Program-made: the position numbers and the translations under genes
Part shown: positions 46,427 through 64,000 of the stretch, in pieces
Layout: the number at the start of each line of letters is the position of its first letter
Numbering within the stretch: the stretch's first letter is position 1
Source of the DNA: Bacilli bacterium
GTDB taxonomy: Bacteria; Bacillota_I; Bacilli_A; RF39; UBA660
Length of the DNA stretch: 64,000 nucleotides
Direction: 5' to 3'
Assembly (NCBI GenBank): GCA_900771805.1
Contig: CAAGPL010000045.1
Span: 90 to 64,089, forward strand
The notes under the pieces: model-generated
What the model was told of the DNA's origin: nothing
Seen by the model: only the letters and a program-made list of their open reading frames with translations
The model's database searches: none

Positions 46427-46456
46427 TAAAAAAATAGCAAAAAAATTCTGCTATTT
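46427..46456 (-). terminator. Hairpin terminator after the 711-aa surface-protein gene
   Basis: aatagca-aaaaaattc-tgctatt flanked by A/T runs. Overlaps the stop codon. Confidence 0.5.
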
Positions 46457-48586: not shown

Positions 48587-48587
48587 T

Positions 48588-51500
48588 TTAATCACCTTCC
48601 TCATTTTGTCCTGCAACTACTAGAATTTGTAAATCTTCATCATCTACTGATGCATAATTTATAAATGAACCAGCTTCTTTTCTTGAAATATCAAATGCAA
48701 TTGTTAAATATTTTTTCTCTCCACTATTAATTAATTGATCAAATAAAGTATTGTTTTCTAAGTAACCATTATCATTCATTACCCAACCTTTATTTTCTTC
48801 ATACTTGTCATTAAATGTCATTCCATCAGGAATATAATCTTTAACTTGATATATATATCCTGGATAGTATCCAGTATTTTCTAGTTCTAATGTATAAACA
48901 ACTTTTATACTTAAATTATTTATATCTTTTACATCTAGCTTAGCTAATGTTGCATTTCCATAATCTCTAGTTGTAGAAACACCTAAACGATTTGTTGTTA
49001 TAGCTTTTGTTATATATTTAGTAAGTTTAACAGAATATTCTTTTCTTAATGCAAGACCTAGATTTATATTACTTACTTGTCTTGTATTATCAGTTATTTC
49101 AATATCATCTGTTCTTACTATTACACTTTGATTGTTTACTTCATCTTCCTTTTTAGTCTCGTCATTATCAGATTTTTCAACATCTTCTTTTTCGTTTTCT
49201 TTTATATCTTCTTTTTCATTTGAAATTGTTACTGATTTAAACTGAGATGTAATAGATTTATCTAAATTTACTTGATATGGTGATATACCATATTTAGCAG
49301 TATTATATTCCGCTACAACATAATATGTTCCTGGCATTAAATCGGTTAAACTATAGTAGCCTTTTTCATCTGTTGTTACTGTTTTAATTAATTCATTATC
49401 AGAAGATGAATATAGTTTCAATGTTACTCCAGAAACTTTTTTCTCATCAAATTTCATAATACCATCTGAATCAAAATCTTCCCAAACAGTACCTGTTATT
49501 TTTTTACTAATTACAGACACAGTAAGTTCATGTAATGTTTTAACATCTGAATCATATACTAAATAAGAATTTATTTTATACATATCATCAGTTTTATTAC
49601 CCTTTGGATTTATTGTTATTCTTTGATCATATAATTTATTTACATCTAAATTTATATTATTAACCTTTATTGCTGTAACTCTAGAATAATTATTTTTCTT
49701 ATATTCATCACAATTTTTCCAATCAATTTCTGTAGAATCTCTTAAATTTTCTTCTTTACTAACTAAAGCAGGTAAACTTACAGTACATAAAGCATTATCT
49801 GGCAAATCAGATATAGTATAAGTTCCTGTATAAGATACCTTTTCGTTACTAATATCATTGTAAGGTAATACAGTTACTAAAGAAATATTATTATGTGCCA
49901 TTTTATCATTATTATATAGTTTAGTTCCTACATAAAAACTTGTATCTTTTGATATAGCAACATTTGAAGCATATTGATTATAAGAAATTACTTCATTATT
50001 TTGATATATAATGCTTCTAATTGTTGTTCTTTCTGATATATCTGATGTATCACTAATATTATCTGGTGTTGTAGCCTGTATTTCAACCGATATATCTTTT
50101 TTTGTACCTGAATTAATATCTATGTCATAATTTATATCAAATTGTATTGGATCAATCCATTCATTTACTTTTTGCCCTTTAAGTTCATATGTTAAAGTTT
50201 TTCCATTATTACTTACATTTGGTAACATATAATTTTCATTATATATATAATTAATACCTGATGGAAGATTAACTTTTATTATAACTGATTTCAACTCATT
50301 TATACCTGCTAAATTAGTATTAACATTTTCACCTGGCAAACTAATTGTTGGATATATGCTTAGTGTTGAACTATTTTTTTCTGCACCATTTACAATAACA
50401 TCTTGTTCACTACTACCAACAAACACTTTAGTTCTTGCTTTAAATGCAGTTATATTTATTTTAGCAGAAGGGTCACTTTCTTTATTTACATCCTTTATTG
50501 TTTTATCTTCTAAAGTTTCTTTATAATATGCATTTGATGTTAAAGATATTGTTCCACCATGATTACCAACATTTGTCTTTAATCTTATCCTAAAGTTTAT
50601 ATTTTGACCTGGTTTTACTTCTTTTACAGTATAAGTCAAATATGCTAATGTTAAATTTTCTTTTTGTATATTTTCATCATCGTATGATTCAAATTCTTTT
50701 GCATCACCAACACATGTAGTGCCAGATTCTTCCATTTTACAAGCATAATACTTAACTATTACTTCTTGATTATCATTAATACCACTAATTTGATAAGCTT
50801 CTTTTAAATTACTTGAATATTCTATCATACTAAATAAAGCGGTTGGATTAGTAGATGTTGAAGTACCAATAGCTATTGGAACCTTAACTGTTACTTCATC
50901 TATATTGCTATCTCCATCAGCAGAATAAGAAAATAAAGATTTTAAAACAGTTTCTTCTCCATATGATAAAGTTTTTTCCTTTGTTTCGAATTCTAAACTA
51001 TTCGTCTTTGTTCCAACAGAATAATTTTTATTAACTGAGGTTCCTTTAGAAACTTCTTCATTATTATTTCCATAAGCTATTAAATCAACAGTTATGTTAT
51101 TGGTAACTGAACTATCACGAATAGATTTTGCATTAACAAAATAAGAGCCTAGTGCTATAAAATTATTATTATATAAATATAAATTACCATCAGATTTTAT
51201 ATTTTTAGCAGTAAACATATATTTAGTTATAAAATTAATTTTATTTGTAACTTCAAGAACAAATCCATTTTTATCAGTTACTTTATAAACAGCATTATAT
51301 GTACCTGCTTTGTTAGTATTTAATTTACTTATTTCTTCATTTGTTAATACATCATAATATTTAACAGAACAATTTGAAGTAGAATTACAAGTGAAATCTT
51401 TTGAATCTATAGATAGTAATGGATCACCATATTTACCATTTGACGATGTATAAATTGCATTAGCTGTTAAAACTTGTGCTTTAACAAAAGGCATTTTATC

Positions 51501-53033
51501 GACAATTTTAACAGTTCTTTCAAAAGTTATTGTATTGTAATTTTCTTCATTATCTTTTGTAGTTCCTGTTACTATATAAGTGATTTTATATTCTCCTATT
51601 TCTTTAGTATTAATAGAACTTTTTATTTCATCATCTTTTGTTATTGAACTTTCATAATTAGTTAATATTTGACCATCTTTTATTAATCCTGGTTCTTTAT
51701 ATAAATCTCCTTTAAGCAAAGTTATTGTTTTACTATCATTTAAAGAATAAGTGCTTTCTTCCATTTGCTTTGTTTCTTTTTTTGTTACTTTTATAGTTCT
51801 ATAAAGCGTTATTTTTCCTGAAGCAGAACTATATTCATAACTTACCTTATATGTTCCTTCTTTTTCAGTTAATTCATCTATTTTTATTTCCTGACCTGAC
51901 TTATCAGTTATAGTTCTCTTACAATTTTTAAAATCCGTTTTACATAGTGCACTTGCACTTTCATTTGTTGAAATACCATATTCTCTATATGTATCATCTA
52001 CTTCTAAATTTATTTCTTTATCCCCTATTAAATAAGCAGCTGGGCTTGTGTTTGTAACTAAGTTACCACTTACTCCTTTATCTGTTTTTTCTAGATTTGT
52101 ACTATCCCCTGAATTATAAACTGAAAAATTAAAATAATCTAATTTATGATTTGGCATACCTGATAATAATTTAGTTGATGAATCATATACTCCATAAAAA
52201 TTTTTATCTTCTTCTAATTCTATTTGAGAGGTTACTTGATTAGCAGTTTGAGTTGCTTCTAAAACTACTTGAAAATTAGGTTTAAAATAAAGCCCTGATA
52301 ATCCATTTGGATATTGTTCCTTATACAAACCAACTAATATTCCAAATGGTGCTAATCTTCCATTTTCTATTTTTTCTGATTTATATGCTGTTCCAGGAAC
52401 AATTTTAGTAGTTAATGTTGCTTCTTTACTAATTACTTTAACTGGTTTTAAATTATCTATACTATATTTTAATGAGTCTGACGTTTCTTCATATATATCA
52501 AAAGTAACATTTATATCACTATTATTTTCAACATTTCCAACTCTTAAATATAATTGTTTTGATAATTTTTCTCCTACTTTAGAACCATATATAGTAACTG
52601 TAAGTTCCTTTTTGTTTTCGGATGGTTTATAATTATCTTCTTCATCATTTATAATCCATTCTGCATCAATATCATTTGTTAATGTAGCTTTTATTACAAC
52701 GCTTCTAACAACTGTGGCATCATCTTTTAGATTATCAATTGATAGTTTATAAGAAACATCGTATACTAATGTATTAAAACTTGGTATGGATTCTATTTTA
52801 TCAGTTGATATCGTGCTTTTTGGTGTAACACTTGCTGATGATATTTTTACTTTTCCTTTATATTCATCATTATCAGATGCATAAACAATAAGAGCAACTA
52901 TGCATGAAAATAAAAATACACCTATAAATGCAGATATGTATTTATGTTCCTTTATAAAATTTTCTATTCTTATTTTTTGAATAAGAAAAAAGTCTTTAAT
53001 TTTTTGTGCTTTATTATTTTTTATATCACTCAT
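48588..53033 (-). CDS. Giant N-terminally anchored surface protein (Ig-like/SdrD-B-like and DUF11-like repeats)
   Basis: 1481 aa with an N-terminal TM helix (FIGVFLFSCIVALIVYA). Long beta-rich region. An SdrD-B/Cna-B-like module (GVTLKLYSS...TDEKGYYSLTDLMPGTYYVVAEY) is followed by a DUF11-like C-terminal domain. The stop is 1 nt before the next gene's ATG. Confidence 0.75.
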   Translation of the reverse strand: MSDIKNNKAQKIKDFFLIQKIRIENFIKEHKYISAFIGVFLFSCIVALIVYASDNDEYKGKVKISSASVTPKSTISTDKIESIPSFNTLVYDVSYKLSIDNLKDDATVVRSVVIKATLTNDIDAEWIINDEEDNYKPSENKKELTVTIYGSKVGEKLSKQLYLRVGNVENNSDINVTFDIYEETSDSLKYSIDNLKPVKVISKEATLTTKIVPGTAYKSEKIENGRLAPFGILVGLYKEQYPNGLSGLYFKPNFQVVLEATQTANQVTSQIELEEDKNFYGVYDSSTKLLSGMPNHKLDYFNFSVYNSGDSTNLEKTDKGVSGNLVTNTSPAAYLIGDKEINLEVDDTYREYGISTNESASALCKTDFKNCKRTITDKSGQEIKIDELTEKEGTYKVSYEYSSASGKITLYRTIKVTKKETKQMEESTYSLNDSKTITLLKGDLYKEPGLIKDGQILTNYESSITKDDEIKSSINTKEIGEYKITYIVTGTTKDNEENYNTITFERTVKIVDKMPFVKAQVLTANAIYTSSNGKYGDPLLSIDSKDFTCNSTSNCSVKYYDVLTNEEISKLNTNKAGTYNAVYKVTDKNGFVLEVTNKINFITKYMFTAKNIKSDGNLYLYNNNFIALGSYFVNAKSIRDSSVTNNITVDLIAYGNNNEEVSKGTSVNKNYSVGTKTNSLEFETKEKTLSYGEETVLKSLFSYSADGDSNIDEVTVKVPIAIGTSTSTNPTALFSMIEYSSNLKEAYQISGINDNQEVIVKYYACKMEESGTTCVGDAKEFESYDDENIQKENLTLAYLTYTVKEVKPGQNINFRIRLKTNVGNHGGTISLTSNAYYKETLEDKTIKDVNKESDPSAKINITAFKARTKVFVGSSEQDVIVNGAEKNSSTLSIYPTISLPGENVNTNLAGINELKSVIIKVNLPSGINYIYNENYMLPNVSNNGKTLTYELKGQKVNEWIDPIQFDINYDIDINSGTKKDISVEIQATTPDNISDTSDISERTTIRSIIYQNNEVISYNQYASNVAISKDTSFYVGTKLYNNDKMAHNNISLVTVLPYNDISNEKVSYTGTYTISDLPDNALCTVSLPALVSKEENLRDSTEIDWKNCDEYKKNNYSRVTAIKVNNINLDVNKLYDQRITINPKGNKTDDMYKINSYLVYDSDVKTLHELTVSVISKKITGTVWEDFDSDGIMKFDEKKVSGVTLKLYSSSDNELIKTVTTDEKGYYSLTDLMPGTYYVVAEYNTAKYGISPYQVNLDKSITSQFKSVTISNEKEDIKENEKEDVEKSDNDETKKEDEVNNQSVIVRTDDIEITDNTRQVSNINLGLALRKEYSVKLTKYITKAITTNRLGVSTTRDYGNATLAKLDVKDINNLSIKVVYTLELENTGYYPGYIYQVKDYIPDGMTFNDKYEENKGWVMNDNGYLENNTLFDQLINSGEKKYLTIAFDISRKEAGSFINYASVDDEDLQILVVAGQNEEGD

Positions 53034-53124: not shown

Positions 53125-53331
53125 TTATGAACTTATTACAACATTATTAATTAAAACATCTTTATAACCAAAACTTTTAATATCAGTCTTTGTTTTTAAT
53201 GTCCATATGTTTTGATATGTATTTAAAATTACCCCCTCATACATTTCGTTTTTGTTTCTGCCTATATCAACATAAACCTTTATTTTTTTTCCTTTTAGCA
53301 ATGTTATATTTTTTTTGATTTCATCAAGCAT
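53125..53331 (-). CDS. veg: Veg protein
   Basis: 68 aa. LDEIKKNI...GKKIKVYVDIGRNKNEMYEGVILNTYQNIW...FGYKDVL parallels B. subtilis Veg. Lies directly downstream of yabG as in B. subtilis. Confidence 0.8.
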   Translation of the reverse strand: MLDEIKKNITLLKGKKIKVYVDIGRNKNEMYEGVILNTYQNIWTLKTKTDIKSFGYKDVLINNVVISS

Positions 53332-53342
53332 TTGTATCTCCT

Positions 53343-53840
53343 TTATCTTGGGTATCCCGTCGTCATAACCCCTCTTGTATTTACTCCTCCTATACCATCT
53401 TTACCATTACTTGTTTTTTCAAGTAACTCTAGCAAATCAACATTTTTATTTTTATCCGACAAACTAAGAGACAATGCAATTATTGCCGGGTCTAAGGCAT
53501 GTATATTTATTCTCTTTGGACTTGATGCAAAATTAGCACCCGCTTTTATTAATTTTTCATAATCTGATTGACACGCACCTGCAATAATTATTAATTTATC
53601 ATAATCACGTTGATATTTCCTGCAAACTTTAACCGCACCACAAAAATATTTTGAATTTTCTTTAGTTTTTGAATCATGGCCAGTTATAACAACTATATCA
53701 GGGTTTATATCTTTTAGATACTTTTCGATATTTTTTTCCATATCACTTTCTTCAGAATAAACTCCATAAGCCAAAACATTAGCATCCTTATAAAAAGATA
53801 AACATCTATTTAAATATTCCTTGTCACCATCTGCTGACAT
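53343..53840 (-). CDS. yabG: 3' segment of the sporulation-specific protease gene yabG (peptidase U57); 5' portion missing from this locus
   Basis: 165 aa. DGDKEYLNRCL, VVITGHD, IIAGACQS, GANFASSPKRINIHALDP and GGVNTRGV match the C-terminal ~165 residues of the ~290-aa B. subtilis YabG (from memory). In-frame TAA and TAG lie immediately 5' of the ATG, and a recombinase gene ends 51 nt away. Confidence 0.8.
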   Translation of the reverse strand: MSADGDKEYLNRCLSFYKDANVLAYGVYSEESDMEKNIEKYLKDINPDIVVITGHDSKTKENSKYFCGAVKVCRKYQRDYDKLIIIAGACQSDYEKLIKAGANFASSPKRINIHALDPAIIALSLSLSDKNKNVDLLELLEKTSNGKDGIGGVNTRGVMTTGYPR

Positions 53841-53891
53841 TTACTAAGTAAGTCGAAAGCCTTTTTTATAAGCAAGACCCAATGTCTTACC

Positions 53892-55469
53892 TTAATATAA
53901 TTTAATATTTTTTGTTTTTCCTACACCAAATTTAAATATTATTTCTATTGTATTATCTTTATTAATGATAACTTTTTTTATTAAACTTCTTATATATTCT
54001 TTATCCATTATATCTTTTTTTATAAATTTATTATAAATATCTATTAGCTCATTTTTCTTTTCTTCACAGTTCATTTCTTCTATTAATTCTTTCAAATTAA
54101 ATTCTAGCTTTTCCTTTTCTAAAGATATATCCTTTTTTCTTTTAATAAATTCCTCTAGACTAATATCGCCCTTTGTTTTAGAAAGATATATACCTTTAAG
54201 CCTCATATCACAATTTTCTATTGCTTTATTTATATTTTCAATCTTCATCTTTGGTCTGTGTTTTTGATTAACTTCCTTCATGACGTCATTTATCGCATCA
54301 TCAGAATTAACATAAACTTTGATCAAATCCTTTATATTATCTTCCAAAATTGTTCTTAATTTAGAATCATATAAAGTTCTATTATCACATTTTTTTCTGT
54401 TTATTGTTTTATTACAAGAAAAATAATATACCTCTTTCCCATTTTTCGTTTTTCGGCAAGCAGTCATTTCATTGCCACAGCATCCGCAAAAAACTAATCC
54501 TTTTAATGTACCATCATAATTATTTTTTTGCCTTCTAGCATTACTTTTAAGTTTTGAATTAGCTTCTATAAATAATTCATTACTAACAATTGCAGTATGT
54601 GCATCACTAATTTCTTTTCTATCTCTTATAGGAATCCATTTTCGTTTCTTTTGTCTAAAGTCCTTTTTTTCGCTCTTTCTTACTACGATAGATCCTGTGT
54701 AAGTTTTATTTTTAATTATCCTATATATTATTTTATCAGTCCAATCATAATAATATTTTTTATTTTTGCTTGGAGTAATATTCATATATATAACAGGTGG
54801 TGCAATTTTTTCATTATTTAAAACGTCTGCAACTTCTTTTCTTGACATACCAGATGCGATACTTGAAAATATTCTCTTAACTATACTTGCTGAATACTCA
54901 TCTACTTCTAAAAATCTTTTTTTATCTTTTTTTACTACTTTATAGCCATATGGTGCTGTAAAACCAATAAATTCTTTATTATTCGTTTTAGTAAGTGATA
55001 CTTGTTTTCTTTTAATAGAAGTATCTCTTACATGTTGACTATTTATAACGGATTTTATTTGCACAAGACTATTTTTTTGAAAGTCACTAGGATTATTAGA
55101 ATCGTAGCAATCATCAATTGCTATAAATCTAATATTATATTTTGGAAAGTACTCGCTTATATAGTAGACTGTATCAATAAAATCTCTACCTAATCTTGAT
55201 ATATCTTTAGTTATTACTGTATCAATTAAGCCGGCTTGAATATCTGAAATAAGTTTTTCAAATGCTGGTCTTTCAAAATTGATGCCTGAATAACCATCAT
55301 CAATATATTCTTTATTAATATGAAAGTTCATCTTCTTAGCATATTCATTCATTATACTAATTTGATTATAAATACTCTCTGAATAATCATTTTTAACGTT
55401 TGAATCTTTATTCGATAACCTTGCGTATGACACTACCATTTTTTCATTAATCATTGTTTGACTCTCCAT
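53892..55469 (-). CDS. Large serine recombinase (SpoIVCA/phage integrase type), junction-proximal
   Basis: 525 aa. VVSYARLS catalytic Ser, DDGYSG, KDISRLGRD, a recombinase domain, a Zn-ribbon (CGCCG...CNK...C) and a C-terminal coiled coil. Overlaps the upstream recombinase by 23 nt. An alternative ATG at 55454 sits behind ggagag. Confidence 0.9.
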   Translation of the reverse strand: MESQTMINEKMVVSYARLSNKDSNVKNDYSESIYNQISIMNEYAKKMNFHINKEYIDDGYSGINFERPAFEKLISDIQAGLIDTVITKDISRLGRDFIDTVYYISEYFPKYNIRFIAIDDCYDSNNPSDFQKNSLVQIKSVINSQHVRDTSIKRKQVSLTKTNNKEFIGFTAPYGYKVVKKDKKRFLEVDEYSASIVKRIFSSIASGMSRKEVADVLNNEKIAPPVIYMNITPSKNKKYYYDWTDKIIYRIIKNKTYTGSIVVRKSEKKDFRQKKRKWIPIRDRKEISDAHTAIVSNELFIEANSKLKSNARRQKNNYDGTLKGLVFCGCCGNEMTACRKTKNGKEVYYFSCNKTINRKKCDNRTLYDSKLRTILEDNIKDLIKVYVNSDDAINDVMKEVNQKHRPKMKIENINKAIENCDMRLKGIYLSKTKGDISLEEFIKRKKDISLEKEKLEFNLKELIEEMNCEEKKNELIDIYNKFIKKDIMDKEYIRSLIKKVIINKDNTIEIIFKFGVGKTKNIKLY

Positions 55470-57090
55470 TTATATTAAAATTAAAATATATCCTTACTTT
55501 TTTGTTTTTATCAATTGTTATTTTTTTAATAATTTCTCTTAATAAATTACTATCAGGATTTTTAACTTTTAAAAAATTATTGATTATTTTCTTTTTCGTT
55601 TTTTCATCATTAATGTCACTCTTGTCATCGCTTAGCATTCCATTTAAATCTGATATTTTATCTGACAAGATTAATTTTTCATTACTAAGGTCTTTCTTTA
55701 TATTAACAAACTCTTCCGTATTAATAATTCCTGACATCTTGTCTTTATACAAATCACTAATTGCTTTGTCAACATTTTTTAGTTTTACATAGTACTGATC
55801 TAACTCCGCTTGATAATTATTTAGCAAATCTCTATCTTGAAGAGCTAAATCATATGCTTTTGACAATTCTTTATTATCAGAATATTTAATAAGAATTTTC
55901 CTTATTTCATCTAATACTAATTTATTCAAAGCCTCTTCCCTATAATAATGCATAGAACATACATTACTCCTATATGTAGCATAAGTCCTACAACAATATA
56001 CTGCATAAATAGAATTTTTACTTTTTTTAGACTTACTTTTACATCTTCTAACAAGCATAGCCTTTCCACAATCTTCACAAAAAACTAATCCTTTTAACAA
56101 ATAATCATATTTTACATGTCTAATATCTAGTTTAATGCTTTCAGCCAATTTCTTGTTTGCAAGCTCAAAACTTTTCTTATCTATTATAGGTTCATGATTA
56201 TTTTTTTTAATTATCCACATATTTTTAGGTAACAATCTTTTTTTCTTTGATTTCAAACTTACTCTTTTATATTTTCCTTGAATCAAAGTTCCTATATATA
56301 CTTCATTAGTAATGATATTATTAATTGCACTACCCTTCCATAAATTAGTAGTAAAAGTTTTTTTGATTTTCTTATTATTATAAACACTTGGTGGTAATAT
56401 TCCTTCATTCGTTAATGATCTTGCTATCATATTTGGAGACTCACCATTAATTTTCATTTTGAATATTCTTTTTACAATATTAGCTGCATATTCATCAACC
56501 ACTAATTTTCTATTATCATCTTTAGATCTAGCATATCCATATGGAACTGTACTTCCAACAAATAAGCCTTGTTCCATCAAATTATGTCTTACAGAAATTA
56601 TCTTCCTTGATGTTTCCTTTAAAAACATATCATTAATAACAGTCTTTAATGGAATCATATCATCATTACTTCTTGGTTCTTCGGTATCAAATTCGTCCAA
56701 TATTGAAATATATCTAACATCATTTTCAGGAAAGTATTTATATATATATACTCCTGTACCTATAAAATCTCTACCTAATCTTGATGTATCCTTTGTTATT
56801 ACACAATTTATAATTCCGCACTCTATATCATTTATTAATCGTTTGAAGGCTGGTCTTTCAAAATTACCACCCGAATAACCATCATCAACGTAATAATCAT
56901 ATATTTCTATACCGGCTTTTTTTGCATAATCTTTTATGCATTCTTTTTGATTTACTATACTGGAACTCTCACCATCATTATTTTCAGTTATAGATAGTCT
57001 AGCATATCCAGCTGCTTTGTATGATTTTCCTGTTATATCTTGTATCAATTTTGCGTTATCTCCTTTCTGCTTAATAACCATACAAATCAT
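55447..57090 (-). CDS. Large serine recombinase (second, upstream copy)
   Basis: 547 aa. AAGYARLS, DDGYSGGNFERP, KDTSRLGRD, a Cys-rich ribbon (CEDCG...CCR...C) and a coiled-coil tail. No clear RBS before the first ATG. An in-frame TTG behind aaaggag (codon 15) is an alternative start. Confidence 0.9.
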   Translation of the reverse strand: MICMVIKQKGDNAKLIQDITGKSYKAAGYARLSITENNDGESSSIVNQKECIKDYAKKAGIEIYDYYVDDGYSGGNFERPAFKRLINDIECGIINCVITKDTSRLGRDFIGTGVYIYKYFPENDVRYISILDEFDTEEPRSNDDMIPLKTVINDMFLKETSRKIISVRHNLMEQGLFVGSTVPYGYARSKDDNRKLVVDEYAANIVKRIFKMKINGESPNMIARSLTNEGILPPSVYNNKKIKKTFTTNLWKGSAINNIITNEVYIGTLIQGKYKRVSLKSKKKRLLPKNMWIIKKNNHEPIIDKKSFELANKKLAESIKLDIRHVKYDYLLKGLVFCEDCGKAMLVRRCKSKSKKSKNSIYAVYCCRTYATYRSNVCSMHYYREEALNKLVLDEIRKILIKYSDNKELSKAYDLALQDRDLLNNYQAELDQYYVKLKNVDKAISDLYKDKMSGIINTEEFVNIKKDLSNEKLILSDKISDLNGMLSDDKSDINDEKTKKKIINNFLKVKNPDSNLLREIIKKITIDKNKKVRIYFNFNINGESNND

Positions 57091-57127
57091 AAATTATTAT
57101 TAAAAATAAATCGAATGTGCAAATTTA

Positions 57128-57247
57128 TTAATAATTTTTATTTTGCACAATTGACATAACATATTTTTTAAAAATTTCAGTTATAAGCTGATCTATTGGT
57201 TTTCCATTTTCATCATATATACATAATACTAATTCTTCGTTTTCCAT
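57128..57247 (-). CDS. Small ORF (39 aa) with strong RBS
   Basis: gggaggaaaaaATG, then MENEELVLCIYDENGKPIDQLITEIFKKYVMSIVQNKNY. Below the track cut-off. Its stop lies inside the spacer of an 8-bp inverted repeat (57116-57149). Confidence 0.35.
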   Translation of the reverse strand: MENEELVLCIYDENGKPIDQLITEIFKKYVMSIVQNKNY

Positions 57248-57338
57248 TTTTTCCTCCCATTAAACCTATGACCATAATATTTTTTTCATACATAAAAAAA
57301 ATAGGATATTTAATCGTTTTAAAAAAGCATAAATTACC

Positions 57339-57530
57339 CTATCTGTTGATTTTAGATATTTTATATTTTAAATAAAAGTCTTTTCCAAAAATATTCATTA
57401 ATTTACTTTTATCTTTTATATTCTGCTTTAATAAATTATCTATTTTTCTAATTGCATCCCTTTTGTTATATGCATTTACTTTCATACTTGTTTTTTGTAT
57501 AAATTTAACATCAACTAAATAATCTTTCAT
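57339..57530 (-). CDS. Small phage-type protein, paralogue B (63 aa)
   Basis: Shares the pattern MK-[DN]-[YF]-x-[VI]-x-V-[KR]-[FL]...V.A....AI..[IV]...L..N with the upstream ORF. ATGA start/stop overlap with it. Confidence 0.55.
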   Translation of the reverse strand: MKDYLVDVKFIQKTSMKVNAYNKRDAIRKIDNLLKQNIKDKSKLMNIFGKDFYLKYKISKINR

Positions 57531-57751
57531 ACATTCACCCTAACAAATGGAATTGATAAATTTTCTCTTGATCTTGACTTTAATTCTTTCTTTTGAAGTT
57601 TATATTTTATATTATTACTATTATTAATGTTTAAAATATCATTATTTTCGAGTGTGTCTTTTACCATATTAATTGCTGATAATTCATCATCAGCTATCAC
57701 ATTAAAATTAATATTTTTACACAACCTTACTTTTATATTAAAATTTTTCAT
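57527..57751 (-). CDS. Small phage-type protein, paralogue A (74 aa)
   Basis: First gene after a terminator and a structured leader. RBS aaagaaagga. Paralogous to 57339-57530. Confidence 0.55.
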   Translation of the reverse strand: MKNFNIKVRLCKNINFNVIADDELSAINMVKDTLENNDILNINNSNNIKYKLQKKELKSRSRENLSIPFVRVNV

Positions 57752-57893
57752 TACAAAATTCCTTTCTTTTTATTTTAAGAGGGTTTTAGTTTGCCCACAA
57801 CTCCTGTGCCAATAAGGTCACGTTACCTGGCGTTTTTTACTTAGTGACATATCGGTGATTTTCACTAAGGCTAAATTGTCAAAGAACACCCTG
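57752..57893 (-). promoter_or_regulatory. Unusually GC-rich structured leader upstream of the small-protein/recombinase operon
   Basis: Contains TTGACA (57878-57883, minus strand) without a good -10. Also an 8-bp inverted repeat cttagtga/tcactaag (57840-57869) and a gcca..aggt-cacgtt-acct..tggc hairpin (57808-57831). No ORF. Confidence 0.3.
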
Positions 57894-57938
57894 TAACAAA
57901 AAAAACAGGCAAAAGGAAATAATATCCTTTCACCTGTT
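57894..57938 (-). terminator. Rho-independent terminator after the sigma-r4-like regulator gene
   Basis: Minus strand reads aaacaggtgaaagga-tattatt-tccttttgcctgtt followed by T8. Confidence 0.65.
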
Positions 57939-57973
57939 TGTTCACTTAAATGTGATTTAGCAACCTAAATCTC

Positions 57974-58450
57974 TCATTTTTTTGAAATTTTATAAAATTC
58001 TTTTAATTTTTCTAATGCCAATTTCAAACTTTTAGAAATAGATTGATGTGTTGTATTCTCTTCTTCAGCAATCTGATAAATGTTTTTATTTTGAAAATAA
58101 TATTTAATAAGTCTTCTTTTTTGAACTTCTGATAGCTTATTAATGAAATTTAATAAATCCTGATATTCATATTTTTTCAAAATAATATCTTCTAAATTTT
58201 CATGTTTATATACTAATCTTGAATTAATAGTCCATTCATAAATCTCACTATGTTCTATATGTCTTTTGTATTCGTTAATCTCACAAACATCATCAAGTTC
58301 AAATCTATCCATTAAATCAAATACATCTTTTCTTACTTCAATATTTCTTAATATATTTTTACTATCTTTAAACAAAACATAATATTTTTCACCACTTACC
58401 TCTAGAGTATATGGATTATCTTTTTTTCTGCTTCTTTTTGGTCTTTTCAT
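57974..58450 (-). CDS. Sigma-70 region-4 / ArpU-like HTH regulator (mobile-element associated)
   Basis: 158 aa. Basic N-terminus (KRPKRSRKKDNPYTL). C-terminal LSEVQKRRLIKYYFQNKNIYQIAEEENTTHQSISKSLKLALEKLK resembles a sigma region 4 HTH. Confidence 0.6.
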   Translation of the reverse strand: MKRPKRSRKKDNPYTLEVSGEKYYVLFKDSKNILRNIEVRKDVFDLMDRFELDDVCEINEYKRHIEHSEIYEWTINSRLVYKHENLEDIILKKYEYQDLLNFINKLSEVQKRRLIKYYFQNKNIYQIAEEENTTHQSISKSLKLALEKLKEFYKISKK

Positions 58451-58512
58451 TTACCATCCTTTCTATTGATTTTTTTCAATAAAAAGGTGGACCTCTAGAA
58501 AAATAAAAAGAT

Positions 58513-58562
58513 ATAAAAAAAATCCTAGATGGGATTATAAAACTAATACCACATCTAGGATT
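58513..58562 (-). terminator. Rho-independent terminator (11-bp stem)
   Basis: aatcctagatg-(20 nt)-catctaggatt followed by T8 on the minus strand, about 270 nt downstream of the endolysin stop. Confidence 0.65.
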
Positions 58563-58738
58563 TAAAGTTACAAATATAAATAAAAACCAAAACCCACTAA
58601 TCATAGCAGCACACCCATCAATGCCACAACAATTTACTACAATAGTAAAAGTGTATAGATGTACTGCTAAATATCTAAACCTTATACCTAAAAATATTAT
58701 TTACTACTATAAAGGCATTGCTCCTTTTTTTGCTTGCT

Positions 58739-58767
58739 ATTATATATTTTTATGGTATAAATGTAAA
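58739..58767 (-). promoter_or_regulatory. Candidate sigma-A promoter of a short non-coding transcript
   Basis: Minus strand reads TTTACA, 17 nt, TATAAT. The nearest downstream terminator is at 58513-58562, with no credible ORF between them. AT-rich background makes chance matches likely. Confidence 0.3.
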
Positions 58768-58829
58768 TGAGATTTTTCTAATATAAAAAGTATTTTAATA
58801 TTATTTTCAAATGATATATTTCTTCATAT

Positions 58830-59555
58830 TTAATATGAAAAACCATAACTTATTAAAGCTTTTAATGTTTTCGGACCAATTCTACCATCTATTTCATCAT
58901 CATATCTTCCATCTTTTTTCGCTCTTTTTTGAAATTCAATAACCCATTTTTCCAAATATGGTCCAAATAAATTTCCATCCAATACATCATGTGCATCTTT
59001 TTTGTTATTATAAAAATACCCATAATATTGTTCAGCAAAAAAATTGCATATTTTCCCAATGTTTACATGATAATCTCCACGTTTAAAACATATTTTTCCA
59101 TCAAAAAACGAATTATTAGAAGTATTTGTTGAGCAGTTATAATTAAACGTCTCTGGATTTAAATATTTTCCTGTGGATAAATCAACTATTGATAAATGTA
59201 AATGGATACCTGTTGCTTTTCCACTCATACCAGTATATCCAAGTAAAGTTCCCTTTGATACTGTTTGTCCATTATGACAGTTTATACTGGATAAGTGATA
59301 GTGTAACATTTTAACATTAATTCTAGGATATTTTACCCACACATATTTTCCACCTAATTTATCGGTTCCACAACTTAAAACACTTCCATTTTCTATCGCA
59401 TACTGAGGTAATTTTATACCATTCGTTCCATAATCTGTTCCACTATGATAACTACTAGTATATCCTCCTTTAGTATTTATTCTTTTTCTTGTGCCAAACC
59501 CAGATGTCATATAATGAGTTGCGTTCTTGAAAATTAAATTTGTTATGTTACTCAT
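58830..59555 (-). CDS. Endolysin: M23 metallopeptidase with C-terminal PG_binding_1 domain
   Basis: 241 aa. HSGTDY (HxxxD) and GIHLHLS (HxH) M23 motifs. C-terminal ...FQKRAKKDGRYDDEIDGRIGPKTLKAL peptidoglycan-binding repeat. Confidence 0.85.
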   Translation of the reverse strand: MSNITNLIFKNATHYMTSGFGTRKRINTKGGYTSSYHSGTDYGTNGIKLPQYAIENGSVLSCGTDKLGGKYVWVKYPRINVKMLHYHLSSINCHNGQTVSKGTLLGYTGMSGKATGIHLHLSIVDLSTGKYLNPETFNYNCSTNTSNNSFFDGKICFKRGDYHVNIGKICNFFAEQYYGYFYNNKKDAHDVLDGNLFGPYLEKWVIEFQKRAKKDGRYDDEIDGRIGPKTLKALISYGFSY

Positions 59556-59784
59556 CTTCTATTACCTCGTATATAGGTTCTTGATTACTATTATTACTTT
59601 TTGTTTTATCAATTTGATCTTTATTAAAAAAGTATGTTGCTATCATACCCACTACTAGCATAAAATTATCGCTATCAATTCTTCCTGACACAGACAAATA
59701 AAAGAACGCTGCAAATGTAAGCAGCGTTATTATTGATTTTACTTTAAGTAAACTAACTAATGACTTTAATATCATTTCTTTCAT
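59548..59784 (-). CDS. Holin-like protein (two TM helices, charged C-terminus)
   Basis: 78 aa. Overlaps the endolysin start by 8 nt and the upstream ORF by 4 nt. Hydrophobic helices followed by an acidic tail. Confidence 0.65.
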   Translation of the reverse strand: MKEMILKSLVSLLKVKSIITLLTFAAFFYLSVSGRIDSDNFMLVVGMIATYFFNKDQIDKTKSNNSNQEPIYEVIEDE

Positions 59785-60080
59785 TTTCTATCATCCTCCT
59801 TTACATTTGGTAATTCATATAATTTATTAATAATTTTAGTAACCATGCCATTACCACCTAACTTGTGATAATTTTCATACATTTCCTTTAAGTTTTCTTT
59901 CATATAACTTGGGCAATATCCTAATTTTTCTTGTTTATCATAAATTCTAATAATTTCATTTCTTAAAAGAGCAATCATTCCGTTTTTTAACCCTATATAC
60001 TGTTTAAAGATATAAATGATACCAGAAGTAATAGATGTTAATAGTATTTCTATCCAATACTTTATTATAAAATTTATCAT
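59781..60080 (-). CDS. Membrane-anchored lysis-cassette protein
   Basis: 99 aa. N-terminal TM helix, then YMKENLKEMYENYHKLGGNGMV. The family occurs beside holins in Firmicute phages (recollection, not verified). Confidence 0.5.
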   Translation of the reverse strand: MINFIIKYWIEILLTSITSGIIYIFKQYIGLKNGMIALLRNEIIRIYDKQEKLGYCPSYMKENLKEMYENYHKLGGNGMVTKIINKLYELPNVKEDDRK

Positions 60081-60187
60081 AAGTTCACCTCTTCAAATAA
60101 TAAAAAACATAATGATAATAAAATCAAAATGTTTTTTAGATAAGTATTTTTTATTATTTTCTGAGTTAATTTTTTATATGGTTTATC

Positions 60188-60571
60188 TTAACTTATTATA
60201 TAGTTTATTATTTCTTCATCACTTTTTTTTGTTCCATCAGAATTATAATAAATCAACACTGTTTCAATTGCCATTTTTAACATAAACATATACAGTATAA
60301 GTTCACGTCCATAACTTGTATTTTTATATCTATTTATATATACATCTGTTTTTTTTCTCATATCTTTATCGATAGTAAAAATTTCATAATTAAAATCTTT
60401 GACACATCTTGTGAACTTGTCAAATAACCCACTATAATATTCATCAGCCATTTCAAGATTAAGTTCATAAATTGCTAGTGGAGTTTTTCTTTCATTTATA
60501 TTTTTTACAAGATTTAAATCAGATTCATATCTTTTTTTTAAAAGGAACCTTTGTCTTTCTTTTTCATTCAT
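60188..60571 (-). CDS. Putative immunity protein for the RHS C-terminal toxin
   Basis: 127 aa, cytoplasmic-looking. Begins 29 nt after the RHS stop on the same strand. No family recognised, so the call is positional. Confidence 0.5.
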   Translation of the reverse strand: MNEKERQRFLLKKRYESDLNLVKNINERKTPLAIYELNLEMADEYYSGLFDKFTRCVKDFNYEIFTIDKDMRKKTDVYINRYKNTSYGRELILYMFMLKMAIETVLIYYNSDGTKKSDEEIINYIIS

Positions 60572-60599
60572 AAATTTATCTCCTTGTTTATATTTGTTA

Positions 60600-63500
60600 T
60601 CACTTTAACTTATACCAAAAGCGAATAATTTTACCATCGCTCATGAAATTTCCACCTTTTCCAAGATAATCTCTAACACCCCATATGGCATTTTTATGTG
60701 TATAATCGAATGTGTATTTTATAACACTTCTGTTTCTATTAGAAAAACTAATAGCATCATTAGTATATTTTACAATATTGTTACCTTTAGAAAATTCTTC
60801 ATCTATAACATGCTTTTGATAATGATATTTCATAGAATAATACCCATTATCGAAACTACCTTTATACCATTTAGAAGCCGCAATTGCGGTTCGCGTAATT
60901 CCATAACCAATTCCTGCTATTGAACCTACTATTGAACCCCACATTGCTCCATCAGATCCACCAGTAATAGCTGCTTTAAAAGACCCTTTATTACTTTTTC
61001 TTTTTTTCTTATTTTTGATTACTGATTTAGTCGCACCATATGCTGCACCAATTATAGTTCCACCAATTGCAAATTTTAATGCAGATGATGCTATATATCC
61101 AGCTACTCCAGAGGATGATCCACCTGTTGCCACTGTTACTACTGCACACGTTACAATAACAGCTGCAGCCGTTATAACTTTTAAAGCACTTTTAATTTTC
61201 CACTTAGGCCAATTACCATTTTCATCAGCATAATTAATCGGATTGTTTAAAGCATACTGATACATATTATTACCATCTAAATTCCCAATATCAGATATTC
61301 CTATATCGGCATTAATAAATCTTCTCCAATTTGGATTATAATATCTTTCATTTAAATAATATAATTTTGTTTCTTTGTCGTAGTAAAAACTTCTATATCT
61401 AAATGGATTTATGTTTGCAATATGAGAAATATCGGTTGATACATCATTGTCGTTTTCATCTGTAATAGAAATCATTTTCCCCCACGAATCATACTTATAT
61501 CTAGCAACTACATTGAAATTACAATCTAATATACCAACAATATCATCTTTGCTATTTTTCATATAATAATATATATCATCATTGTATTTAAATCCAATTA
61601 AATCATCTATATTACTACGTAAATAGTATAACACATTATCACCACTTTTTTCAAATATAATATCATTTCCATCTAAATAATATTTAGTTTCAATGCCATT
61701 TATAATTTTGCTCGTTCTAATACCATTATCATCATATTTATATGTTATATTATTTGATCCATCATTATATGATTTTAATTCTCTTCCGTTGGTCCAATTT
61801 AAATATATATTATTACCAATAGATAGAGGATTACCAATCTCATCATAACTTATTTCATGACCATTAAATTCTGTTAATTGATCTTCCCAAGCCTCATTAT
61901 TATACTTATATGTATTTTGATTAATAAATTCATATGTTTCAATATTATACACTCTTTCAAATAATATATTTCCAACATTGTCATATTTATATTTTGTAAT
62001 TGTTTTATCTTCATAATTAATTTCTTTTATAAGTTGATTAAAATTGTCATAATAATATTTGTTTACTATATTACCATTTTTATAAATATGAGTCATATTA
62101 TTTAAAGAATCATATTTATATAAAAACTTATCTGTTCCAGCCGTTAAACTTTTTATCATTGCTGACGTATTTTTACCATTTTTTAAATATTCATAATTCG
62201 TTTCATAAGCATCATTTATTTTACTACTTTTTATCCTTCCTATTGTATCATAACTATAATCTATTTTATTGTTATCAAATAAAGTACTGATTATTAAATC
62301 ATCATCATTAAAATTATTAGTTATTTCATTACTTAAATTATTCATATTATATTTAATTCCTATAACATTATCATTGGAATCATAATTATATTTAATTTTA
62401 AAATCATTAAATCTATATTCACTTAATTTTCCGGATAGATTATAGGAATATTTAATAATAGCATTATTTGATATTATTTTTGCTAGATTACCATTATTAT
62501 TATATTTATAATTATATATATCATCTATTTTAGTAGCCTTTTTTAATCTATTAAATTCATCATACTCATAATCAATAGAATCGCCATTCCCATAAACAGA
62601 TGATGTTAAACAATCACCTTGGTCATAGTAATTGCTAACAAGATTAACATCTTCTCCAATTTTGATATTTTTAATATTTAAAAATTCGTCGTATATGAAA
62701 TTATATTCCTTTGTTCCATATGTAATCTTACTTAATAAGTTCTTATCATTATATTTATATTCTACTTTTCTTCTTCCTTTAGAAACTTTTGTTAATTCAT
62801 TTTTATCACTATAAGTATAATATATTACATTCCCCTTAGAATCTGTTTCAGAATGAATTAATCCTGTTAACTCATCCATTTCATATAAACTAACATTACC
62901 AAATGGATCAGATATACTCTTAATAAATCTACCATCTTCTGTGTATTTCGCAGTATTTTCAATAAATAAATCAGAATCTATTGTCTCAAAATAAAATTCA
63001 AAACGAAAATCATCTTCTATTAAATCTGCTGCCTCTAAACCTGAATCAGTGATTTTTAAATATTTATCTTCTAGTTTTAATTTTATATAATAACTTCCAT
63101 TTTTATTCTTTTGAAGTTTAAATAATGATTTATCATTATTATAACTAGTTAGTAATACAAAGTTATCAATAATTGTAAAATATTTATCGTTAATTATAAA
63201 ATGGCTTATTTTAAAGTATTCTCCATCCTTTTTCAACTCCCATAAACTATGATTATAGTCCTCATCAGTTACAGAAATTTTATTGGCAATATTTTGCAAA
63301 TAATTATTTGTACCTTTTAATCTTATTTTGTATAAACCATCAGTTACATTACCAATAATATTATTTTTTTTAATTATGGTTGCAACCGGATTATTATTAT
63401 TATCATACTTTATTTGATTAGATATGCCCATATCAGATATACCATTAATAACTCTATCAGTAATAATATTATCATATTCAAATGCAAATCTTTTTCCTTT

Positions 63501-63998
63501 TGGATTAATCATTTGAATTAATTGATTATTTTTATCATAATTAAACTTATCACTATTATTTTCTGAATTATTTTCCAATATTACATTACCATTATCATCA
63601 TATTCATAATAAACATTTTTCACATCCTTAAATAAACTCATATTTGAAATATAAAAATTATTTGCAGTGTATTCATGACTTATCAATAATGTAATGGAAG
63701 TGTAATCTCTTTCAGCAACAAAATCATTTGATACATATTGCCAAGCTTCATCATTTATGTTTAATATTGGGCTTGGTAATACACAACCACCAGATTCTTC
63801 ACTATCAACATATTTGAAAATAATGAAAACTCTGCTCCCATAGTATTCTGATAAATTGGAATTTATGCCTTCATTTTTATACCAAAACGATATATTAAAT
63901 GTATCCCCACCTTTACCACTTATGTTGAACTTTTTCTCCATATTCGTAGTATGAACTGGGTTAAGTTTAGTTTTTAACGCCTTAACACCATTATCCAA
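60600..63998 (-). CDS. RHS/YD-repeat polymorphic toxin (N-terminus outside the window)
   Basis: More than 1132 aa. The apparent start is only a TTG at the window edge. Many YD repeats (YEYDDNGN, YKYNNNGN, YKYDNVGN...). RHS core end is RYYNPNWRRFINAD...YQYALNNPINYADENGN, followed by a 203-aa variable C-terminal region. Confidence 0.9.
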   Translation of the reverse strand: MDNGVKALKTKLNPVHTTNMEKKFNISGKGGDTFNISFWYKNEGINSNLSEYYGSRVFIIFKYVDSEESGGCVLPSPILNINDEAWQYVSNDFVAERDYTSITLLISHEYTANNFYISNMSLFKDVKNVYYEYDDNGNVILENNSENNSDKFNYDKNNQLIQMINPKGKRFAFEYDNIITDRVINGISDMGISNQIKYDNNNNPVATIIKKNNIIGNVTDGLYKIRLKGTNNYLQNIANKISVTDEDYNHSLWELKKDGEYFKISHFIINDKYFTIIDNFVLLTSYNNDKSLFKLQKNKNGSYYIKLKLEDKYLKITDSGLEAADLIEDDFRFEFYFETIDSDLFIENTAKYTEDGRFIKSISDPFGNVSLYEMDELTGLIHSETDSKGNVIYYTYSDKNELTKVSKGRRKVEYKYNDKNLLSKITYGTKEYNFIYDEFLNIKNIKIGEDVNLVSNYYDQGDCLTSSVYGNGDSIDYEYDEFNRLKKATKIDDIYNYKYNNNGNLAKIISNNAIIKYSYNLSGKLSEYRFNDFKIKYNYDSNDNVIGIKYNMNNLSNEITNNFNDDDLIISTLFDNNKIDYSYDTIGRIKSSKINDAYETNYEYLKNGKNTSAMIKSLTAGTDKFLYKYDSLNNMTHIYKNGNIVNKYYYDNFNQLIKEINYEDKTITKYKYDNVGNILFERVYNIETYEFINQNTYKYNNEAWEDQLTEFNGHEISYDEIGNPLSIGNNIYLNWTNGRELKSYNDGSNNITYKYDDNGIRTSKIINGIETKYYLDGNDIIFEKSGDNVLYYLRSNIDDLIGFKYNDDIYYYMKNSKDDIVGILDCNFNVVARYKYDSWGKMISITDENDNDVSTDISHIANINPFRYRSFYYDKETKLYYLNERYYNPNWRRFINADIGISDIGNLDGNNMYQYALNNPINYADENGNWPKWKIKSALKVITAAAVIVTCAVVTVATGGSSSGVAGYIASSALKFAIGGTIIGAAYGATKSVIKNKKKRKSNKGSFKAAITGGSDGAMWGSIVGSIAGIGYGITRTAIAASKWYKGSFDNGYYSMKYHYQKHVIDEEFSKGNNIVKYTNDAISFSNRNRSVIKYTFDYTHKNAIWGVRDYLGKGGNFMSDGKIIRFWYKLK

Positions 63999-64000
63999 TG

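Follow-up and report, generated by a model that had tools for sequence, protein, structure and literature searches.

An integrative conjugative element splits the sporulation gene yabG at codon 101 in uncultured gut Bacilli and may act as a sporulation-gene-intervening element

The analysed window, a stretch of 64,000 nucleotides from the Bacilli contig CAAGPL010000045.1, carries towards its right-hand end the sporulation protease gene yabG split by a mobile element, of which the window contains the part from 53832 to its edge. All window features given here lie on the minus strand. The host gene veg (53125..53331; Pfam PF06257 VEG, E = 5.4e-13), which is the next gene after yabG at every intact locus examined, is adjoined by a 165-aa open reading frame (ORF; 53343..53840) whose last 162 residues are YabG and whose first three (M-S-A) are foreign, being made up of the element-derived codons ATG TCA GCA followed by yabG codons 101-262. 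Pfam PF05582 (YabG peptidase U57) matches this ORF over profile positions 108-280 of 280 (E = 2.6e-62), and NCBIfam TIGR02855 spore_yabG matches over positions 110-282 of 283, with a score under the trusted cut-off solely because the fragment is truncated. In-frame TAA (53841-53843) and TAG (53844-53846) codons stand directly 5' of the fragment ATG, and the nearer of two large serine recombinase genes ends 51 nt away, at 53892. The C-terminal YabG identity, the stops, the recombinase distance, the native locus (veg in place, with the order ksgA-yabG-veg in conspecific contigs) and the splitting of yabG by a precise site-specific insertion bearing large serine recombinases all agree with an earlier prediction made from the sequence, hereafter the original prediction.

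The closest full-length protein to the fragment, P0001 (262 aa), is 98% identical to it over residues 98-262, and the correspondence of P0001 ...GKILHI|DGDKEY... with MSA|DGDKEY in the window places the loss at approximately 100 annotated N-terminal residues. The original prediction was therefore right that the N-terminal part is missing, and its estimate of ~125 residues from a protein of ~290 has been revised to ~100 of 262. The start of yabG is itself ambiguous, with gene callers giving either 262 aa, from an ATG overlapping the ksgA stop, or 242 aa (contigs L087 at 6001 and L110 at 10883), so the true N-terminal loss may be ~80-85 residues rather than 100; in many YabG orthologues the start falls around residues 14-21 of the long form. 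Both the His (VVITGHD) and the Cys (IIAGACQS) motif are kept in the 3' fragment, no Shine-Dalgarno-like sequence was found within 15 nt of its ATG, and no second YabG-coding DNA was found in the window by tblastn with P0001. The identical junction was recovered in more than 30 independent assemblies from different samples, so that both a chance ORF and an artefact of assembly are excluded. On every contig long enough to include a neighbour, the 165-aa fragment adjoins a recombinase without exception, and the stand-alone homologues that the original prediction had named as a counter-case were absent from this set.

Intact counterparts and the missing 5' half were both recovered from related contigs. 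Conspecific metagenome contigs encoding P0001 have the order ksgA(rsmA)-yabG-veg-large surface protein, which is also the host backbone of the window, and so provide the uninterrupted yabG that had been sought in related strains. The missing 100 residues used as a query returned short proteins that follow YabG as far as ...ILH(I/V)D and then continue into foreign tails, including ADILTSSVSK, ADIPTSSVSK, ADCFVSTNSK, ADHLCNSEFEKVL and ADIFLSNHDETLIK; the N-terminal parts of these proteins range from 98% down to ~45% identity, indicating that many species are involved. On the contigs looked up, from the window's species and a sister species, the 5' halves lie directly after ksgA with element DNA following, which is the far junction that the original prediction had expected. 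In sample SRR29048502, from the window's species, both junctions were assembled (L104 and L092), and three sister-species contigs carry both yabG halves, 31,822, 37,152 and 34,876 bp apart by record coordinates (the first two being ENA records ERZ27287504 k141_219744, 260,398-292,220, and ERZ15609933 NODE_132, 58,264-95,416). Further element-bearing records include Logan SRR35966938_2493 and contigs of SRR1761699 that are 100% identical to the window, and carrier samples include ERR9708184.

When the halves were joined in silico at the shared GA, as the original prediction had proposed, codons 1-100 from L098 and the 3' part from L253 gave 262 of 262 amino acids of the intact sister-species protein P0298, and the 5' half from L104 with the 3' half of the window gave the protein of the intact contig L120, with 1 nt differing in 789. 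Both halves are without extra mutations, and excision would restore an uninterrupted, scarless, in-frame yabG. Split and intact alleles coexist, with the exact split fragment on 9 contigs vs exact intact P0001 on 20 in the window's species, and on 21 contigs vs 132 carrying the intact P0298 allele in the sister species. Among the GTDB representative genomes, full-length yabG was present at all 80 loci listed, counted as one full-length match each and not mapped genome by genome, with no split representative among them. The KsgA alleles P0289, P0287 and P0293, used as queries, likewise led to loci that were nearly all intact.

Comparison of attB, attL and attR, from which attP was deduced, places the crossover at the dinucleotide GA (53830..53831), which forms the first two bases of the Asp101 codon, the core of attR and the element/host boundary. 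On the gene strand, attB reads ...TTTTGCATATA-GA-TGGTGACAAGG..., attR in the window ...TTAGTAAATGTCAGCA-GA-TGGTGACAAGG..., attL ...TTTTGCATATA-GA-CGCTGA(C/T)... and the deduced attP ...TAAATGTCAGCA-GA-CGCTGATATTCC..., the last containing the inverted repeat GTCAGC-A-GA-C-GCTGAY, with GA at its centre. Large serine recombinases cross over at 2 bp, and the restriction of identity between attB and attP to the central A-GA fits such a crossover. The element-side arm (P arm) of attR, ...GGCTTTCGACTTACTTAGTAAATGTCAGCA (53832..53876), is also the source of the fragment ATG and of both upstream stops; its 45 nt are identical in the window and in L253, L254, L256, L258, L125, L001 and L131, and the host arm differs. 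The junctions are represented by the k-mers TTTTGCATATAGATGGTGACAAGG (attB), TAAATGTCAGCAGACGCTGATATTCC (attP), TTTTGCATATAGACGCTGATATT (attL) and TAAATGTCAGCAGATGGTGACAAGG (attR). The targeted protein motif, PGK(I/V)LH(I/V)DGD, is conserved over 51 representative genomes of the lineage.

The att-proximal gene rec520 (53892..55469; 520 aa from the ATG at 55454, or 525 aa from 55469) encodes a large serine recombinase with Resolvase, Recombinase and Zn_ribbon_recom domains and is the candidate integrase. It matches the PHROG 95 integrase family (E = 1.4e-82), its best annotated relative is TndX of Tn5397 (30% identity), and the exact 520-aa protein occurs on 17 contigs, with the yabG 3' half adjoining in all 10 places shown. 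The second large serine recombinase gene, rec544/547 (55447..57090), overlaps rec520 by 23 nt and encodes the same three Pfam domains; the two proteins are paralogues at 36% identity, and rec544/547 is a probable operon partner. Both recombinase genes also stand in tandem in L092, of a 74%-identical lineage, and in the distant contigs L106 and L107 (542 + 519/523 aa). A decayed variant from the window's species (L093/L130, ERZ1749116 NODE_1440) comprises rec520, the sole recombinase left, and the last ~143 nt of rec544, at 99.8% identity to the window; beyond this remnant lie a galactose operon (galT, mutarotase, galK, galE) and rve-family transposases.

Upstream of the recombinases, three small ORFs of 39 aa (57128-57247), 63 aa (57339-57530) and 74 aa (57527-57751), together spanning 57128..57751, are conserved in constant order in every copy. 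No Pfam or NCBIfam family was matched by any of the three, the 39-aa ORF alone had a weak PHROG match, and they may be considered candidate accessory or directionality factors. The adjoining region (57752..57939) consists of an intrinsic terminator, found by terminator scan at 57903-57939, followed by a non-coding block leading into the small-ORF/recombinase operon. This block (57752-57902) is almost invariant even in comparison with L092, where the element core is only 74% identical, and had no Rfam family or significant fold (fold z = -1.4). Within it, TTGGCAC-AGGAG-TTGT looks like a sigma-54 -24/-12 promoter whose -12 element is imperfect. The next gene (57974..58450) encodes a 158-aa protein with a sigma-70 region-4-like domain (sub-threshold Pfam Sigma70_r4_2, with TIGR02937 and PHROG sigma-factor matches), presumably an element regulator, and is preceded by a strong sigma-70-type promoter at 58739-58767 (TTTACA-17-TATAAT, 11/12 matches), found in a scan that overall gave fewer sites than its shuffles.

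From 58830 to 64000, and running on with the element past the window edge, lies an exchangeable cargo module (Pfam RHS_repeat and Peptidase_M23; PHROG), comprising an M23 peptidase (58830-59555), two small phage-like ORFs of 99 aa (phrog_4105) and 78 aa (phrog_13256), a 127-aa ORF in the immunity position (60188-60571) and an RHS-repeat polymorphic toxin (60600 to beyond 64000). The same backbone elsewhere carries an ATP-binding cassette (ABC) transporter module (L125, L253) or glycosyltransferases (L131) in this slot, and to the left of the cargo the backbone of L001, a copy with the RHS module, is 98% identical to that of L125. The phage-like ORFs accompany the RHS genes and were not seen in copies whose cargo is an ABC transporter. 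The genes which had originally been read as a 'lysis cassette' and an RHS toxin are parts of one exchangeable module. Wherever the RHS cargo was seen (window 58830-64000; L001 1464-11742; L254-L258 1-5002), it was accompanied by the immunity-position ORF, the two phage-homologue ORFs and the M23 peptidase, and the toxin tip varied among copies (Ntox44, Tox-WTIP or none recognised), as did the following ORF. The trio of holin-like and peptidase genes may have its role in releasing the toxin and not in phage lysis. The far side of the RHS cargo is marked by another sigma-region-4-like gene (L001 453-1335 vs L125 6686-7581), which encodes 162 aa and has ~69% DNA similarity to the constant gene for the 158-aa protein; the duplicated regulator region could be the recombination point for cargo swapping.

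The class of the element becomes apparent from related copies outside the window, in which the conjugation genes were read and in which ~10 kb was seen at each end, the middle 12-15 kb, where a coupling protein and the other mating-pore genes would be expected, being unseen. In L125, whose rec520 gene is 99.9% identical, the backbone includes a 771-aa VirB4-like ATPase (DUF87/AAA_10/TraG-P-loop) and a 490-aa CHAP hydrolase, and the order towards attR is VirB4-like ATPase, CHAP hydrolase, helix-turn-helix (HTH) protein, cargo, sigma-like regulator, three small ORFs and two recombinases. The far end, read in L098-L103, carries attL, ParA, ParB, a SpaA-type adhesin, a sortase, a single-stranded DNA-binding protein (SSB), a DUF3991/Toprim primase-like protein, a MobC/NikA-like protein, a PF03432 relaxase (~35% identical to annotated plasmid relaxases) and DUF3801; these far ends are on the same contigs as L253, L256 and L258, the core of which is 98-99% identical to the window. 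No virion or packaging genes (capsid, portal, terminase, tail) were found in the window or in the ~20 kb seen per copy, and phage-like matches were limited to the integrase, the endolysin-like M23 peptidase, the two small ORFs and one Gp10_C domain. With an element length of 31.8-37.2 kb, the DNA from 53832 to past 64000 forms the right end of an integrative conjugative element (ICE) of ~32-37 kb and not of a prophage; the prophage-like foreign element originally predicted is thus foreign and recombinase-bearing, and of another class.

The 4.6-kb core of the element (58450-53841) is 99.96-100% identical between the window and L124, L126, L128, L129 and L132, in which the flanking host DNA is 72-76% identical, and 98-99% identical in the sister species, in which the flanks are ~84-86% identical. 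These comparisons indicate that the element is currently mobile between species, with yabG the only insertion site in every copy seen. Within the window's own species this site is also taken by a second lineage (L092/L104), only 74% identical, and in a third, distant lineage, with a recombinase 52% identical, ...GGTCAGCA-GA-TAGTGATGAT... is fused to a yabG 3' half 47% identical. The structural description, namely an ICE in yabG codon 101 that is scarlessly reversible in silico and has spread recently between species, is held with high confidence. Three short contigs were returned from IMG/VR with rec520, among them L107 (IMGVR_UViG_3300029305_008160), which is filed as viral there and which, along with L106, is a distant relative. 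These two contigs carry, in order, genes for an HTH protein, a sigma-like protein, a PemK toxin (preceded by a small upstream ORF), two large serine recombinases and a small resolvase of 193 aa; L107 then continues into attR, fused to the 3' half of a diverged yabG.

The host belongs among uncultured gut metagenome-assembled genomes labelled Bacilli, Mollicutes or Tenericutes, which keep the sporulation-associated genes yabG, yabP and spoVG and a 203-aa Sigma70_r2 protein just upstream of secE, the position of sigH in B. subtilis (L091 12085-13295; L253 17442-20409). The retention of these genes suggests that the host lineage probably forms spores.

In C. difficile YabG, residues 1-57 form an SH3-like domain, 58-98 a linker and 99-286 a CheY-like catalytic domain that contains H161, D162 and C207 (PMC10681294), and the insertion correspondingly parts the SH3-like domain, the linker and the first catalytic strand, on the ksgA side, from the remaining catalytic domain, on the veg side. 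In an AlphaFold2 model of P0001, residues 97-101 (ILHID) lie in the first strand of a beta-alpha repeat with low to moderate confidence; the mean predicted local distance difference test score was 48.9 (55-84 in the break region), low because only closely related sequences were submitted, and only the secondary-structure pattern of residues 95-200 was used. The 3' fragment, keeping the catalytic residues and losing the first strand, probably cannot fold, and it also lacks a ribosome-binding site; neither half is expected to be functional, and a cell in the integrated state would be without functional YabG. The gene is under sigmaE/sigmaK control in C. difficile, and its loss harms coat and exosporium assembly, germination and gut colonisation (PMC10681294). 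Mother-cell (sigmaE/sigmaK) expression applies in B. subtilis as well as in C. difficile (PMC10681294, PMC10747680). Since loss of YabG is damaging, a permanent knock-out should be costly, yet the split allele is common.

The interpretation favoured here is a developmental cycle, in which one or both recombinases would integrate the element by attP x attB recombination and excise it by the reverse attL x attR reaction. Excision would rise in sporulation and rebuild yabG in the mother cell, the compartment that needs YabG, and the spore would retain the element in its integrated form. Conjugative transfer would draw on this excision step as well. By analogy, the chance is about even that the element acts in the manner of skin, SPbeta, gin and yin, the known sporulation-gene-intervening elements. 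The tested members of this group excise and reconstitute the gene in association with sporulation, and almost all such elements occupy mother-cell genes (PMC4191935, PMC5595907, PMC6957869, PMC10747680). The timing of excision to sporulation, for which this precedent and the cost of YabG loss in C. difficile are the grounds, is given even chances at best.

Several observations weigh against the intervening-element interpretation. Excision is predicted from the comparison of contigs and its cell-type specificity from precedent, and the element middle and the far end in the window's own strain are extrapolated from copies 98-100% identical in the core. The attP junction of an excised circle had no exact match in IMG/VR and was absent from the contigs recovered; the 120 listed matches of the attP 17-mer in JGI metagenomes were all chance matches, to unrelated and mostly GC-richer DNA, a 17-mer being too short for this search. 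No recognisable directionality factor was found in family searches (NCBIfam, PHROG), and no sigmaK (AC-N15-17-CATANNNTA) or sigmaE promoter was found between 58860 and 53841 or upstream of yabG using the B. subtilis-type consensus, from which the lineage's own may differ. The insertions are evolutionarily very recent, so that the intact halves are no sign that reconstitution has been selected for, and the prevalence of the split allele could be due to conjugative spread alone. Conjugative transposons of the TndX type excise at a low basal rate and are not known to be under developmental control.

The strongest competing explanation is a plain insertional knock-out, in which the conserved yabG motif is a mere landing site, excision for conjugation is rare and occurs in any cell type, and carriers sporulate without YabG, either tolerating the cost or having it offset by conjugative spread. 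Such a knock-out is a serious possibility, though one that falls short of being probable. It accords with the clear signs of very recent and efficient horizontal spread, with the lack of a sporulation-type promoter and of a recognisable directionality factor, with the intact allele on most conspecific contigs, and with TndX of the conjugative transposon Tn5397 as the nearest annotated relative. Conjugative transposons of C. difficile with large serine recombinases also circularise without a known developmental cue (PMC3158075), and C. difficile yabG mutants still make spores (PMC10681294). However, yabG belongs to the conserved set of signature sporulation genes, and C. difficile lacking it is impaired in coat, germination and colonisation (PMC10681294); elements tested in mother-cell genes excise in association with sporulation (PMC4191935, PMC5595907, PMC10747680). 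Further, at least three diverged lineages, with host YabG as low as 47% identical, have hit the same codon, which points to a long-standing, stable association.

Very unlikely, by comparison, is a skin- or SPbeta-like and possibly defective prophage removed by its own recombinase in the mother cell only. In its favour, the recombinases fall into PHROG 95, a family of phage integrases, phage homologues exist for the M23 peptidase and for the two small ORFs, L001 has a Gp10_C-domain protein close to its RHS gene, the distant relative L107 is classed as viral, and the known yabG element yin is prophage-like (PMC10747680). Against this, the ~20 kb seen per copy holds no capsid, portal, terminase or tail genes, and holds instead a relaxase, MobC, VirB4-like ATPase, CHAP hydrolase, SSB, ParAB and a sortase/adhesin pair, while the phage-like ORFs are tied to the RHS cargo and are missing where the cargo is an ABC transporter.

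Slightly less credible again is the idea that the split gene still works, as a stand-alone catalytic domain (MSA + 101-262) expressed perhaps by read-through from the recombinase operon, by which YabG would be rewired. The element arm supplies an ATG in frame in both element lineages, and the recombinase operon is directed into the fragment with no strong terminator detected between them. The catalytic His, Asp and Cys motifs are all in the 3' fragment, and removal of the SH3-like domain has been proposed as a possible need for activation (PMC10681294). However, the lack of a Shine-Dalgarno-like sequence within 15 nt of the ATG and the removal of strand 97-101 (ILHID) stand against such a product, the fragment probably being unable to fold on the evidence of the low-confidence model and of the C. 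difficile domain start at residue 99 (PMC10681294). The sequence ATGTCAGCA, lying within the inverted repeat, is more simply read as part of a recombinase binding site. The weakest explanation, and an extremely improbable one, is that the assembly is chimeric or that this copy has decayed while another yabG in the genome is functional. It finds some room in the window ending inside the element, with its own far junction out of view and the genome beyond it not covered, and it conflicts with the identical junction in the independent assemblies, the halves free of extra mutations, the native ksgA/veg locus and the single full-length match at each of the 80 listed representative-genome loci (not mapped one by one). 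Prophage, pseudogene remnant and assembly artefact were accordingly rejected, on the conjugation genes without virion genes, the mutation-free halves and the recurring junction, respectively.

The rebuilding of interrupted sporulation genes by recombinases is a classic case of programmed DNA rearrangement among bacteria, and the present element can be placed as a candidate in the class of sporulation-gene-intervening elements, to which skin, SPbeta, vfbin, vrin, gin and yin belong. The original prediction had known of no characterised yabG-splitting element, and one had in fact been published in 2023: yin of C. botulinum V73 (Douillard et al. 2023), which excises and circularises in a growth-phase-dependent manner and is detectable at all time points (PMC10747680). 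From its description, yin likewise interrupts the yabG coding sequence and has a large serine recombinase with the same three Pfam domains beside one junction. Excision that restores yabG and yields a circle is a further shared feature, by experiment in yin and as an in-silico prediction here. The two differ in that yin is a Caudoviricetes-like prophage of a single Clostridium isolate, whereas the present one is a conjugative element spread over several species of a 'Bacilli' lineage from the gut that is uncultured. The recombinase of yin (HEQ52_18485) lies beside the yabG 5' half and its att sites share a 14-bp repeat, in contrast to two tandem recombinases beside, and directed into, the 3' half and an identity of A-GA only. 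The authors of that study found yin in a single isolate and no other yabG-disrupting element in public genomes (PMC10747680), whereas many are present in the data analysed here.

Like skin in sigK (SpoIVCA/Skr, CD1231/CD1234) and SPbeta in spsM (SprA/SprB), the present insertion is a recombinase-bearing element in a mother-cell gene with scarless, in-frame reconstitution, here predicted; skin and SPbeta, however, are prophages or what remains of them, and have an identified directionality factor that sporulation controls, whereas the present element is conjugative with no such factor or promoter identified. The gin element in gerE of Bacillus cereus ATCC 10987 (Abe et al. 2017, PMC5595907) is similar in being a non-prophage with several serine recombinases (girA, girB, girC), near-identical copies of which in different strains imply recent horizontal transfer, but it has another target gene and no conjugation genes of its own, in contrast to the relaxase and VirB4-type transfer genes seen here. 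The conjugative transposons Tn5397/TndX, CTn2, CTn5, CTn7 and Tn6105 of C. difficile and relatives (PMC3158075) share large serine recombinases with a short crossover of ~2 bp, and Tn6105 additionally has two adjacent recombinase genes and a predicted sigma factor. These transposons are of low identity and have no known sporulation-gene target, whereas the present element is strictly specific for one yabG codon. No natural conjugative intervening element was found in the literature searched, which described prophages, remnants and the non-conjugative gin, with ICEs only as engineered chimeras.

What these comparisons add is that yabG is a recurrent target, hit by at least three diverged lineages at the same codon, that an interrupting element can be a spreading conjugative element with swappable cargo (RHS toxin, ABC transporter, glycosyltransferases), and that the hosts are uncultured gut 'Bacilli' keeping signature sporulation genes. 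If excision is linked to sporulation, this would be a natural system coupling spore formation, YabG-dependent spore properties and horizontal transfer. In its fullest form, which is improbable, a self-transmissible ICE would follow the skin/SPbeta strategy, with mother-cell excision restoring yabG, the doomed mother cell serving as a cost-free conjugative donor and the spore keeping a copy; sporulation would then be coupled to horizontal gene transfer in gut spore-formers, and the existence of a whole recombinase family specialised on one yabG codon would be explained. The recombinase and att pair, with its short sites and GA core, is also a candidate integrase for genome engineering.

Downstream of veg, the host DNA of the window contains two very large surface-protein genes (46451-53033), encoding a 1481-aa protein with SdrD_B/Ig-like domains and a 721-aa protein of SpaA type. 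The SdrD_B/Ig-like protein ranges from 1186 to 1526 aa across hosts and is far more diverged than the products of neighbouring genes.

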